Source of the DNA: Gammaproteobacteria bacterium
GTDB taxonomy: Bacteria; Pseudomonadota; Gammaproteobacteria; UBA6002
NCBI GenBank assembly: GCA_013697705.1
Contig: JACCWJ010000008.1
Location: 6,235 to 70,234 of the forward strand
DNA: 64,000 bases
Direction of reading: 5' to 3'
This document shows positions 15,176-36,281 of this stretch, one piece after another. A program made the position numbers and the translations under genes. The notes under the pieces were generated by a model. It was not told where the DNA came from and did no database searches. It worked only from the letters and a program-made list of their open reading frames with translations. The first letter of the stretch is position 1; each line of letters starts with the position of its first letter.

Positions 15176-15255
15176 GCAAATCTGGACGTTCGTGCCAGGT
15201 ATAAATAGTTTAGATCGTTACGGGATTTTCTCCCCGGGAGGGGAGAAGATGTTGG

Positions 15256-15510
15256 CTAGTTAATGGGTTGTCCGCCTTTCTTCATGCATTGTTCTGAACT
15301 CATATAAATCCAGCCCTTTCCTTTACAGGAGTTTTGGCCGGCGCAGGAATTTTTATTCTTTTCCCCGCATTGCGCTTTTCCTCGACAGCTATTAACGCCA
15401 TAACATTTTACTGGCTTAGCTGCGCCTGACACTTTTTCAGCTGCAAAAGAGTGAGAGGTAAGTAATAAGCTCGCTGCTGTAGCTAACAAGATTCCTTTCG
15501 TTAAACGCAT
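15256..15510 (-). CDS. small secreted Cys-rich protein, DUF2282/bufferin-precursor-like
   Basis: Signal peptide (LLATAASLLLTSHSFAA); mature part KCYGVNSCRGKAQCGEKNKNSCAGQNSCKGKGWIY...EQC with 6 Cys. This matches from memory the KCYGV...CAG...G.W pattern of DUF2282. Confidence 0.6.
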   Translation of the reverse strand: MRLTKGILLATAASLLLTSHSFAAEKVSGAAKPVKCYGVNSCRGKAQCGEKNKNSCAGQNSCKGKGWIYMSSEQCMKKGGQPIN

Positions 15511-15552
15511 TCTGATCTCCTTTTAAAATCCACCTTATTAGTTTAGCCCATT

Positions 15553-16701
15553 CTAAATGAGAAACTGTGAAGTTTCGTCTTTGTGTTTTTTCAGATATTC
15601 CATGAAAGGTGTACCGCCTGTACCGATGCCAGTCGGATTAGCAAGGGAGGTTTGACTCTGCTTCTGTATATAGTGCGCTGCAAAATTTAAATGTGTTTGG
15701 CGAAAACGTGCGAGCAAGTTAATACCCGCATTATAATTTTCGCGTAAATTTATATCATCCTTATGGCTCGTCAAGATGTATTCACGTATGGAAACGTTTT
15801 GTTCTATTGTGCCAATAAAATCACGATGCGCTACGGGCATATACTCGCGCATTTCCGCCAAATATAAACGAAGTGGATCAGGACGATGCTCAATTCCAAA
15901 GAGTGCATCGAACGAAGGAATGATTGAACTTTGAGCTCCTGTTTCACCTCTAAATTGTTGAGGTTGATTATCAAAAACTTCAACTCCCTCATAAATCACC
16001 CCGAGTGGTAAGGCAGGATTATCTTTCCAACCATGAATGTATGGTCGCACCCGATTGTAATAAATATAGGGGTCACAATGCTCTGTCATGCGATCTAAGG
16101 TGTCACACATTTTTTCCAAGTGTTGAATGATTTCTCCCAGATATTGCGCTACCAATGTTTCATTTTGCTGGTTGATAGCTTCTTGCAGTGGCAAAAAAAG
16201 TTGTAATGCTTGTGATGCTTTCATTTCAATATCTATATGCACTAATACAAACCACTCCTCATCTATTCCTCCTAAAAAATTTTGACTAAGAACAATATTT
16301 CCCAGTTCAATAGGACGATTAACATCAAGGCGTCGCCAGTTATTCAAAGCATACGAGTCATAAGAGAGAACGGGCGGTCGTCCTAATTTTTGAGAAACCT
16401 CAAACCAGGGAATGGCAATTGAAGCCGGGATTTTATCGGGACATTTTTTTTCGCCCCATATATAAGCATGTCCAAAAAAGGAAAGCAGCATCATTGCCCG
16501 CGAAAGTTCCGGTGCAGATTGTAGTCTCGCAACTGACAAGATAGGCATATTTTCAAAAGTCGTTTTTAGATGGTCGGACAAAAGTAACTTTGGCAACTCT
16601 TTTCCCAGTTCATCCCACCCCTGATAGTCACGAGGCAAGTCTGGAATGGGGTCATCGACAGGTAAAAAGCCACGCTCTAAATTTATGACGTGATTTTGCA
16701 T
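15553..16701 (-). CDS. indoleamine 2,3-dioxygenase (IDO)-family heme dioxygenase
   Basis: C-terminal GTGGTPFMEYLK matches the IDO hallmark GTGG(S/T). ARFRQTHLNFAAHYIQ aligns with the proximal-His region. N-terminal GFLP...LP..Y..W resembles IDO1. Confidence 0.8.
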   Translation of the reverse strand: MQNHVINLERGFLPVDDPIPDLPRDYQGWDELGKELPKLLLSDHLKTTFENMPILSVARLQSAPELSRAMMLLSFFGHAYIWGEKKCPDKIPASIAIPWFEVSQKLGRPPVLSYDSYALNNWRRLDVNRPIELGNIVLSQNFLGGIDEEWFVLVHIDIEMKASQALQLFLPLQEAINQQNETLVAQYLGEIIQHLEKMCDTLDRMTEHCDPYIYYNRVRPYIHGWKDNPALPLGVIYEGVEVFDNQPQQFRGETGAQSSIIPSFDALFGIEHRPDPLRLYLAEMREYMPVAHRDFIGTIEQNVSIREYILTSHKDDINLRENYNAGINLLARFRQTHLNFAAHYIQKQSQTSLANPTGIGTGGTPFMEYLKKHKDETSQFLI

Positions 16702-16842
16702 CTACAATCCTTAATGAGTAGGTTTTAATTCAACAATTTATAGCAAAATAAAAAATGTGGCTGCACTCGTCTTCTCGCGATTTGTCCGCAGAATTCAGCA
16801 GATTCAAGACTTGATGCGCCGAATGACGCAGTCAGATATTAT

Positions 16843-16907
16843 CTGTTTGCTAAAGAGCTGTTGCAAACAGCAATAGCTTAAGGTTAAGTTAAAAAATTTG
16901 CAAACAG
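16843..16907. promoter_or_regulatory. repeated TTGCAAACAG motif (two direct copies plus an inverted half-site CTGTTTGC) about 100-170 bp upstream of the ankyrin gene
   Basis: Read directly in the 309-bp intergenic region; the partly palindromic TTGCAA core looks like a dimeric transcription-factor site. No known regulator assigned. Confidence 0.3.
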
Positions 16908-17010
16908 TAATAAAAAATGTAAACATTTAGCGTTCCCAAACCCCCAATCCACCACATTATTCCAACTGTTACGGCTGTAAGATCTCATTTAAAACATAAC
17001 AGGAGAAGTT

Positions 17011-34528: not shown

Positions 34529-34942
34529 TTATTCCATTTTCCCTGGGGGCGAGCTGAATTTTTTGACCAGCAACCGCGAAATGGGTTTCAGCTCTAATTG
34601 ACTAATATCAGCGACCCATTCAAAAATTTCTTCAATAATCTGTTTACTTATATTTGTTTCTAAAATCAGTTTCCAACTTAAAAAACAATTTTCTGGATTA
34701 AGCTCATTAAATGGAGGCAAATGATCGATGTTAAGAGTCACACGTAACGGACCCCACTCCTCTAAGGCTTGAAAAAAATGAAGTGGATCATTTCCTGAAA
34801 AGAAGATGTCGGGATGCGGAGAAAATAATATTTCCCAACCCTCTATTGAATTCGATGATGACTCTATTTTTGAGTCTTCTATCTTATTAGTTTCAGGCAC
34901 TGAGACAGGAGAAGTCGATAATTTCTCAAATTCAGACTGCAA
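34529..34942 (-). CDS. hypothetical protein in the Hpt/receiver/STAS operon (start uncertain)
   Basis: Open frame of 137 codons. The track start is a TTG with no obvious RBS. No recognisable domain. Confidence 0.4.
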   Translation of the reverse strand: MQSEFEKLSTSPVSVPETNKIEDSKIESSSNSIEGWEILFSPHPDIFFSGNDPLHFFQALEEWGPLRVTLNIDHLPPFNELNPENCFLSWKLILETNISKQIIEEIFEWVADISQLELKPISRLLVKKFSSPPGKME

Positions 34943-34956
34943 AGGAAGGACTTTAT

Positions 34957-35298
34957 CTATAGTGATAGGCTGTTTTGGCTCAAATCTGCAATCAAATCAC
35001 GCAGACAATCCACTGCCTTTAACATAAGATCCACACTTTCCTTTGTTAGGCTTTGGCTACCGTTACGAATTTGCGTAAGATAACTTTCTAAAGTATGAGT
35101 GAAATCCCTAATGATATTAAAACCAAACGTTGCGCTTCCCCCTTTCATGGAGTGCATAGCTCGAAAGATACGATTAACAGCCTCCTTATCGGTAGGTTGA
35201 TTAACGTCGATATTCAGCAATGCTTTTTCCATATCTGCCAACATCTCAAGGCTTTCCTCAAAAAAGCTCTGATGAAATTGTGATATATCTATTTCCAT
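34957..35298 (-). CDS. stand-alone Hpt (histidine phosphotransfer) domain protein
   Basis: RAMHSMKGGSATFGF matches the CheA-P1/Hpt H-x-x-K-G-x-x-x-x-x-G phospho-His motif. Its ATG overlaps the receiver-gene stop by 1 nt (TAATG). Confidence 0.8.
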   Translation of the reverse strand: MEIDISQFHQSFFEESLEMLADMEKALLNIDVNQPTDKEAVNRIFRAMHSMKGGSATFGFNIIRDFTHTLESYLTQIRNGSQSLTKESVDLMLKAVDCLRDLIADLSQNSLSL

Positions 35299-35663
35299 TA
35301 TTCGATTACTCGTTTAATGACTTGTATTAATTTTTCAGGATTGAAAGGCTTAATTATCCATCCTGTAGCACCAGCCTCTTTACACTTTGTTTTTACCTCG
35401 GCTGAATGTTCTGTAGTTAAAATTAATATGGGCGTAAACTTATAGTTGGGTAGATTGCGCAATGCTTTAACAAGCTCGATACCATCTAACCTAGGCATAT
35501 TGATATCGGAAATTATTAGATCAAATTTTACCAGATCTGCTTGCTCTAACGCTTCTTGCCCATCACATGCGGTCGTTACTGAGAATCCTATCTGTGAGAG
35601 CATGTCCATTACCATTTTTCGAATTGTTACTGAATCGTCTACTGCAAGAATCTTTTTCATCAC
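35298..35663 (-). CDS. single-domain CheY-like response regulator (receiver only)
   Basis: LAVDDS ... phospho-acceptor Asp in DLIISDINMP ... conserved T and K (ILILTTE, IIKP). GAGGTGA RBS. Confidence 0.9.
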   Translation of the reverse strand: MMKKILAVDDSVTIRKMVMDMLSQIGFSVTTACDGQEALEQADLVKFDLIISDINMPRLDGIELVKALRNLPNYKFTPILILTTEHSAEVKTKCKEAGATGWIIKPFNPEKLIQVIKRVIE

Positions 35664-35672
35664 TCACCTCGC

Positions 35673-36005
35673 TCAGGACTGTAACCCGCTTCTTTTATCC
35701 TCATGGCTTGTCTCACCAATCTCTAGTAGATGCTCCATACCCAATAGTTGAACAGCATTGCATAACGCTGGAGTGCAATCCTGCCAGCTCCAAGATATTT
35801 TTCGTTCTTTTGCCGATAATATGAAACTTAATAATAGTTGTAGAGAGGTTGTATCTACAGAATGAATAGCGGATGCTTGCAAACAAAGAGGCTTACCTGA
35901 ATTAAGCGCTTCCTGATAGATACTTTGTTGGGAATGAATTTCGCAGATATTCAGCATTTCTCCATAAACGATAAGATTTTTTTCGCTTTCCCTGCAAAGC
36001 CTCAT
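35673..36005 (-). CDS. STAS-domain protein (anti-sigma-factor antagonist, SpoIIAA-like)
   Basis: STAS-like fold and length. Start placed at the ATG (MRLCRESEK) preceded by an AGGAGG RBS; the track start at 36026 is a TTG. Confidence 0.7.
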   Translation of the reverse strand: MRLCRESEKNLIVYGEMLNICEIHSQQSIYQEALNSGKPLCLQASAIHSVDTTSLQLLLSFILSAKERKISWSWQDCTPALCNAVQLLGMEHLLEIGETSHEDKRSGLQS

Positions 36006-36281
36006 GCCCCCTCCTAAATAACTCAAAATAACATCCTGTTTATTATGATTAGTTTAGCTTCTATCTGGCATACTTCAAGGAGGCTACTGAACCCTATTAA
36101 TGTGGAATAAATTATTTTAGGTTTCCTAGATTGCGTTTCACTACATCTGGGCTGTAGGTTTTGAGGGATGAGTGGGATGCCAATACAAATATTTAGCGCA
36201 GGATCTCAAAGTAGGCAAAGTCACCATTGAGCGTTGGTACCATCAACGTTATTGGCACGAAGAAAAAACCCCTTAATTGAG

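Follow-up and report, generated by a model that had tools for sequence, protein, structure and literature searches.

A stretch of 64,000 nucleotides from contig JACCWJ010000008.1 of a gammaproteobacterial assembly (GCA_013697705.1), referred to here at its full length as the window, carries a lineage-specific variable region of ~23 kb (~15.55-38.33 kb) between the bufferin precursor gene bufA and a tRNA-Thr(CGT) gene. The region is compositionally distinct from its flanks, and on balance we conclude that it was built piecemeal from effector-type genes, ordinary genes and a decayed element. It consists of three parts (Table 1). The first (15.55-28.94 kb, 13.4 kb) holds five single-gene units in an alternating layout, encoding host-mimic or orphan proteins; the second (29.06-36.03 kb, 7 kb) holds ten ordinary bacterial genes, all on the minus strand; and the third (36.27-38.33 kb) is the remains of a decayed integrative element, in which a 55-nt repeat of the tRNA-Thr 3' end encloses hicAB and an integrase truncated at its 5' end. 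We consider it probable that the locus is a composite plasticity zone with a small cluster of host-targeted proteins. An earlier sequence-only reading had described a single AT-rich effector island of 21 kb, inserted at 15200-36030; the accessory character of that block stands, while its borders, its arrival as one unit and its designation as an effector island throughout are revised below.

Composition and synteny of the variable region

The AT-rich shift that the sequence-only reading proposed is real, and the composition profiles of the window are not flat. Between bufA and tRNA-Thr the gene GC content averages 0.38, compared with 0.428 for the 41 genes of the flanks (p=3.4e-6, Mann-Whitney). 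GC content at third codon positions (GC3) is 0.044 lower in the block than in the flanks (p=3.4e-5; flank GC3 0.381), and GC content at the first and second positions is lower too. The five left-hand genes have a GC content of 0.382 and a GC3 of 0.356, the ten right-hand genes 0.378 and 0.326, and the genes of the element remnant 0.377 and 0.300, with the lowest GC3 of the block found in the methyltransferase-2H-GNAT genes (29063-32492). For the eukaryote-like genes of the left-hand part, much of the GC shift is located at codon positions 1 and 2 and reflects Asn- and Lys-rich proteins; their synonymous codon preference is near that of the core, which argues that they are not recent, un-ameliorated imports. 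The intergenic regions, for which a high AT content had also been proposed, are not unusual in this respect compared with the genes.

Comparison genomes were drawn from a collection of 185,579 species that does not contain this one, and the nearest (L003) shares 74% ProS identity with the window. The gene order of L003 (about 75% amino-acid identity) matches that of the window from ruvB as far as wrbA-bufA. Past bufA, L003 carries capA fragments, a Cache protein, degraded leucine-rich repeat (LRR) open reading frames (ORFs), nudC and a major facilitator superfamily transporter; the first gene missing from the syntenic position is the indoleamine 2,3-dioxygenase (IDO) gene of the window. As L003 too has bufA beside wrbA, this gene is counted with the core, and the variable region starts at the bufA/IDO junction at ~15553 rather than at 15200. 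In the Coxiellaceae genome L006, wrbA is followed by hda, DUF2066, purM and purN. At the other end, the proposed limit of 36030 falls 2.3 kb short of the tRNA and leaves out a repeat, the integrase remnant and hicAB, the only mobile-element evidence of the locus.

The flanks themselves are as first described, with wrbA on the left and, on the right, tRNA-Thr(CGT) abutting pilD-coaE-eamA-zapD-yacG-mutT-secA. The same tRNA directly abuts pilD-coaE-eamA-zapD in L083 and L119; in the more distant L088 a pilin gene, pilB and pilC come between the tRNA and pilD, an arrangement that is probably ancestral. No two of the four genomes agree in the DNA 3' of tRNA-Thr. It consists of the remnant and the block in the window, of mobile DNA (1-9200) encoding a DUF927 primase-like protein, RhuM, an uncharacterized protein of 713 aa and IS66 in L083, of genes for a rhomboid protease, uncharacterized proteins and a permease in L119, and of genes for uncharacterized proteins in L088. 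The block is not found at the syntenic positions in L003, L006, L083, L119 or L088, which retain the flanks, and at the depth these relatives allow it is therefore accessory. In none of the genomes compared is bufA or wrbA adjacent to tRNA-Thr. The locus thus marks a break in synteny next to tRNA-Thr(CGT), which serves as a hot spot of integration, and insertion into an ancestral junction is not demonstrable.

The host also appears to be of the kind that the sequence-only reading supposed. In a neighbour-joining tree built from the ProS sequences of the window and of 80 loci, a single-gene tree without bootstrap support, the window groups with L003, and the labelled members of the clade are all Coxiellaceae, Coxiella or Legionellales metagenome-assembled genomes (MAGs). 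This single-gene placement suggests an uncultured Coxiellaceae-like member of Legionellales, not within Legionella.

Eukaryote-like proteins of the left-hand part

All of the eukaryotic-type domains named by the sequence-only reading (IDO, ankyrin, LRR, Ras-like GTPase and DExH helicase) were borne out, and they are encoded in the left-hand part. The IDO homologue aligns collinearly and over its full length with human IDO2/IDO1 (E about 1e-60), keeping the proximal histidine that serves as haem ligand. The 720-aa ankyrin protein matches ankyrin/DARPin entries in the PDB and is a singleton at the level of 90% clusters. For the LRR-GTPase the best PDB matches are RhoG/Cdc42/Rac1 (E about 1e-14); aligned with Rac1, it keeps the P-loop, the switch-I Thr and DTxG, has Ser in place of Gln61 and lacks NKxD. 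No COR domain was found in it with Pfam, and ~90 low-complexity residues follow the GTPase domain. A longer start of this protein (20804-20851) would give MGVYCTS, which is similar to the N-myristoylation motif of eukaryotes (Gly2, Thr6) and has a Cys close by; the shorter NCBI start makes this assignment uncertain. The degraded RI-type LRR ORFs of L003 (17872-19089, 2.7 kb past bufA), which occupy the place that the block has in the window, have no significant similarity to the LRR-GTPase. The 356-aa orphan has no match in Pfam, NCBIfam or the PDB, nor by tblastn in 72,556 plasmids.

As the sequence-only reading stated, poly-Asn tracts are present and signal peptides are lacking. Runs of at least four Asn occur in the giant protein and the LRR-GTPase, the ankyrin protein has 8.9% Asn without such a run, and the tracts are encoded by a mix of AAC and AAT. 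No signal peptide or transmembrane-like N-terminus was detected in any block protein, whereas BufA has a Sec signal. Eight of the 15 block proteins were looked up, and all fall in 90% clusters holding only sequences of their own species. A word-seeded homologue search with the LRR-GTPase and the giant protein returned only themselves; poly-Asn words probably swamped the choice of candidates, so this result has little bearing on distant homologues.

Several repeats were seen between these genes. A short (GCTTGA)n hexamer repeat (19272-19301) is located in the convergent intergenic region between the ankyrin and LRR-GTPase genes, and a palindrome (22224-22310; 38-nt arms, 92% complementary, 11-nt loop) lies in the divergent region between the genes for the 356-aa orphan and the giant protein. 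The latter is a repetitive extragenic palindrome-like sequence (...CGCTACATCCAGGCTAC), present as a sole copy in the window. A scan with promoter and terminator consensus sequences gave matches at chance level.

The giant protein of 2160 aa combines a superfamily 2 (SF2) DExH helicase core with a repetitive C-terminus. Helicase motifs I, II (DELH), III and VI are intact, with GTGKT, DELH, TAT and QQLGRFVR read from the sequence. The C-terminal 1161 aa comprise four repeat copies, of which A and B share 48% identity, while C and D share 16-20% with A. An exhaustive phmmer search with these 1161 aa against 1.84 billion representative proteins yielded only the self-match. Repeat A was modelled with AlphaFold2 (AF2; pLDDT 71, pTM 0.69) as a mixed alpha/beta fold, for which Foldseek gave no significant match in the PDB or a viral structure library (best E 0.03-0.08, TM <0.25); at the sequence level, no known effector is among the PDB matches of the giant protein.

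Between repeats A and B the synonymous divergence (dS) is 0.455 and the ratio of nonsynonymous to synonymous divergence (dN/dS) is 0.88. Under a neutral simulation at the A-B divergence the reading frame stayed open in 0.02% of trials (P=0.0002), with a mean of 8 stops, and in shuffles of the gene the longest stop-free run was 190 codons. Because a frame open over this divergence is improbable under neutrality, the gene is kept by selection while its repeats diversify fast. Such fast repeat divergence in an intact gene is typical of host-interaction proteins.

We infer that the five left-hand proteins, whose genes would be independently transcribed, are most likely delivered into a protist host by a Dot/Icm-type type IVB system; as a group they combine eukaryote-type domains with the lack of a Sec signal, as is expected of effectors. 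The IVB-type secretion system (T4BSS) is highly conserved in Legionellales and the effectors are versatile (PMC8896642), and among the effectors of Legionella, ankyrin, LRR and small-GTPase-like proteins are established types (PMC7542358). Together with the ProS lineage, and with the start of a further giant ankyrin-repeat protein (2238 aa; L084 19970-20555) on the same contig ~10 kb left of the window, these are the grounds for preferring this fate. The 2238-aa protein also indicates that eukaryote-like giants are scattered in the genome and not limited to the block. In a host cell the left-hand proteins would mimic or bind host proteins: the LRR-GTPase might be a GTPase decoy without the catalytic Gln, the ankyrin and LRR domains could provide interaction modules, IDO would oxidise tryptophan, and the giant helicase would act on host nucleic acids. 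One could go further and propose that the giant protein is a new type of translocated SF2 helicase effector, a catalytically intact DExH motor targeted by four fast-diversifying domains and acting on host chromatin or RNA in a nucleomodulin-like manner, with poly-Asn linkers adapted to an Asn-rich (dictyostelid-like) host proteome; this extension we regard as doubtful.

Several observations weigh against the interpretation of the locus as an accessory region with effector-type genes. No dot/icm gene is present in the window or in the 10 kb on either side, an area that covers one contig region. No block protein matches a known effector family (NCBIfam; PDB for the giant protein, the 356-aa and 332-aa orphans and the double-GNAT). 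Crude counts over the last 20-30 residues (acidic block, polar content, hydrophobic -3/-4) do not separate the block from the core. The PmrA box TTAATATT-N2-TTAATATT gave 6 sites with up to three mismatches against 4.2 expected, none of them upstream of a block gene, although this Legionella/Coxiella motif may not be that of the present lineage. The five eukaryote-like genes differ only slightly from the flanks in GC3 (0.356 vs 0.381, p=0.03). The relatives are distant (about 48-83% amino-acid identity), and ordinary rearrangement could explain the loss of synteny. Finally, homologues of IDO and GTPases of the Roc type are present in free-living bacteria as well.

A serious, though clearly less probable, alternative is that the eukaryote-like genes are not secreted and serve the bacterium itself, with IDO acting in tryptophan catabolism, the LRR-GTPase as a Roco-like switch, and the helicase in DNA/RNA metabolism or phage defence. 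Such roles would agree with the intact helicase motifs, the conserved IDO haem ligand, the ordinary enzymes encoded nearby and the fact that neither an effector signal nor effector homology was detected. The position of IDO is also in keeping with them: bufA lies 42 nt downstream on the same strand, and the two genes may be co-transcribed. They fit less well with a GTPase that is without COR and most similar to the eukaryotic Rho family, or with the host-associated lineage, and the poly-Asn linkers, the orphan status and the dN/dS near 1 are better matched by host-interaction proteins than by housekeeping ones. As for defence, an anti-phage island was considered and rejected, since all that PADLOC returned were weak matches to Cas3-like P-loops (about 20 bits) and a generic match of a methyltransferase to mad2. 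Delivery of the left-hand proteins into a host remains the interpretation that we favour.

Right-hand genes and the remnant at tRNA-Thr

The effector-island designation does not extend to the whole block, half of which consists of ordinary bacterial enzymes and a truncated chemosensory cluster. The ten right-hand genes do not fit the effector profile. They also differ in layout; the convergent or divergent single-gene units proposed for the entire block are found in the left-hand 13.4 kb, while the genes of the right-hand 7 kb are co-oriented. The STAS, receiver and Hpt genes and the 137-aa ORF look like the start of a chemosensory cluster in which CheA would have been cut off after Hpt, and no kinase, CheW or methyl-accepting chemotaxis protein gene follows Hpt at 34529-36026. 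The 332-aa orphan, like the 356-aa one, is without a match in Pfam, NCBIfam and the PDB and by tblastn in the 72,556 plasmids. VipF is a tandem-GNAT effector of Legionella; the double-GNAT was considered as its analogue and rejected, because the PDB search returned generic bacterial acetyltransferases and no Legionella effector.

Beyond these genes, the 3' end of tRNA-Thr is repeated with one mismatch in 33 nt, where zero matches are expected by chance. The copy accounts for a 'tRNA-Ser' called by ARAGORN at 36285-36357, which is not a tRNA by Rfam. The integrase ORF between the repeats has lost its N-terminal third, keeps the catalytic R, HxxR and Y residues, and shares 35-38% identity with annotated site-specific integrases. 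Repeat, integrase and hicAB constitute a classical decayed tRNA-integrating element of 2 kb, which we refer to as the islet. The window contains no third copy of the repeat, and none is found near 15.5 kb within 3 mismatches; the 21-kb block therefore cannot be assigned to this integrase.

This result bears directly on the possibility that the whole ~23 kb is a single tRNA-Thr-targeting genomic island, brought by the integrase as one unit and since decayed. A border tRNA with a direct repeat of its 3' end, the integrase remnant, hicAB, the AT-richness of all of 15.5-38.3 kb and the other mobile DNA at the same tRNA in L083 would all be expected of such an island. We nevertheless think it unlikely: the repeat pair spans only the 2 kb of the islet, GC3 is unequal among the sub-blocks, the content is mosaic with a chemosensory stump that looks like resident DNA, and no relative has an empty wrbA/bufA-tRNA-Thr junction. 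A chimeric assembly or contamination, in which AT-rich, poly-Asn protist DNA was joined to a bacterial contig, might account for the poly-Asn tracts and the eukaryote-type domains and is highly improbable, given that the ORFs are intronless and uninterrupted with codon usage near the core, and that the same genes recur, always between bacterial core genes, in independent assemblies (identical genes in the 345-kb contig JAITZE010000008.1 of MAG GCA_020063865.1, a 98-kb contig of a second MAG with H0U71_ tags, and several Logan assemblies). Piecemeal assembly of the region is the reading that we retain.

Flanking features and comparison with known systems

Table 1. Features of the variable region and its flanks (window coordinates)
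Feature	Position	Strand	Basis and remarks
Left flank	wrbA-like flavodoxin 14466-15056		ruvCAB, yebC, aspS, proS, ykuD, brkB, then wrbA-like flavodoxin, then bufA
BufA2-type bufferin precursor	15256..15510	-	NCBIfam NF050166 E=6.7e-22; Sec signal; next to wrbA also in L003
IDO homologue, 382 aa	15553..16701	-	Pfam IDO E=2.7e-105
Ankyrin protein, 720 aa	17011..19173	+	Pfam Ank 25.8 bits (above cutoff), 2-3 ankyrin repeats at aa 326-432; remainder Asn-rich and without assignment
LRR + Rho-like small GTPase, 512 aa (496 aa by NCBI start)	19313..20851	-	Pfam Ras E=2e-18 and Roc; precomputed LRR_TMOD-LMOD match
Orphan, 356 aa	20991..22061	-	All-helical prediction at low confidence (AF2 pLDDT 48)
Giant protein, 2160 aa	22454..28936	+	Disordered N-terminus, SF2 DExH helicase core, acidic and poly-Asn linkers, four repeats
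Helicase core of giant protein	about aa 169-620, 22958-24313	+	ResIII E=3e-22 and DEAD
Four repeats of giant protein, ~230-290 aa each	25460-26173, 26273-26953, 26966-27838, 28001-28708	+	
Methyltransferase (class I), 2H phosphoesterase, GNAT-GrpB, double-GNAT	29063..32492	-	Four tightly packed genes; Pfam
Orphan, 332 aa	32897..33895	-	One transmembrane-like segment aa 107-125 (hydropathy)
Cass2/GyrI-like small-molecule-binding protein	34015..34503	-	Pfam Cass2 E=2.4e-26
137-aa ORF, Hpt, CheY-like receiver, STAS	34529..36026	-	Pfam STAS_2, Response_reg, Hpt
attR-like direct repeat	36274..36328	-	Copy of tRNA-Thr 3' 46 nt + 9 flanking nt; 89% identical to 38275-38329
Tyrosine integrase remnant, ~246 aa	36452..37192	+	Pfam Phage_integrase E=9e-18
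hicA-hicB toxin-antitoxin pair	37348..38000	+	Pfam HicA_toxin and HicB-like
tRNA-Thr(CGT)	38284..38359	-	ARAGORN; Rfam 69 bits; pilD 124 nt further; right edge of variable region
Right flank	pilD from 38483		pilD, then coaE, eamA, zapD, yacG, mutT, secA, dcw cluster

Some further features were noted in the flanks. The bufA gene encodes the precursor of a copper ribosomally synthesised and post-translationally modified peptide and has no bufB or bufC neighbour. The wrbA and bufA genes are convergent, and the space between them contains an inverted repeat with 47-nt arms (15071-15192; 85% complementary), which may be a bidirectional terminator. On the right, the pilD product (38483-39235) is missing a Cys-rich segment of 33 aa that its closest homologue has as part of the PF06750 N-terminal domain. 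The pilB and pilC genes that L088 has between tRNA-Thr and pilD are absent there from the window.

The locus is of a familiar kind for its group and leaves current concepts unchanged; its value is that it extends the catalogue and supplies candidates that can be tested. Little is known of the effector repertoires of bacteria other than Legionella and Coxiella burnetii, and with this region an uncultured, Coxiellaceae-like lineage contributes candidate proteins for host manipulation. The candidates that stand out are the full-length IDO, the Rho-like pseudo-GTPase fused to LRRs, and the fast-evolving, intact orphan helicase-repeat giant. The locus also shows that the tRNA-Thr(CGT) site upstream of pilD has gathered different DNA in each related genome.

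Several known systems offer points of comparison. With tRNA-linked islands that carry P4-type integrases, the locus shares a border tRNA, a direct repeat of the tRNA 3' end, a tyrosine integrase, a toxin-antitoxin pair and deviant composition. These features are distributed unevenly: the tRNA and repeat bounds and the integrase belong to the 2-kb islet, whereas the deviant composition and the absence from relatives, distant as these are, hold for the 21-kb block, which lies outside the repeat pair. The integrase is, moreover, 5'-truncated and located at the distal repeat. The LRR-GTPase resembles the bacterial Roco proteins (LRR-Roc-COR) in having LRRs followed by a Ras-like, Roc-scoring GTPase domain, and differs from them in the missing COR and in its best matches to the eukaryotic Rho family. 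IDO is full-length and collinear with metazoan IDO1/IDO2 and keeps the proximal histidine and the C-terminal GTGGT motif; unlike these it is bacterial, intronless and slightly shorter (382 aa).

From the effectors of Legionella and Coxiella the block differs in that its proteins have no homology to a named effector, that the GTPase is Rho-like rather than Rab-like and without Gln61 and NKxD, and that half of the block is not effector-like. We did not find IDO or a 2160-aa helicase-repeat protein described among effector types, a literature search on bacterial IDO effectors gave nothing relevant, and secretion is here inferred. In its overall form, the region nevertheless resembles the plasticity zones in which Dot/Icm effector genes of these genera reside. 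In both cases ankyrin, LRR and Ras-superfamily GTPase proteins without Sec signals are encoded by lineage-specific genes that are AT-rich compared with the core, close to a tRNA or an integrase remnant, in a host that belongs to Legionellales.

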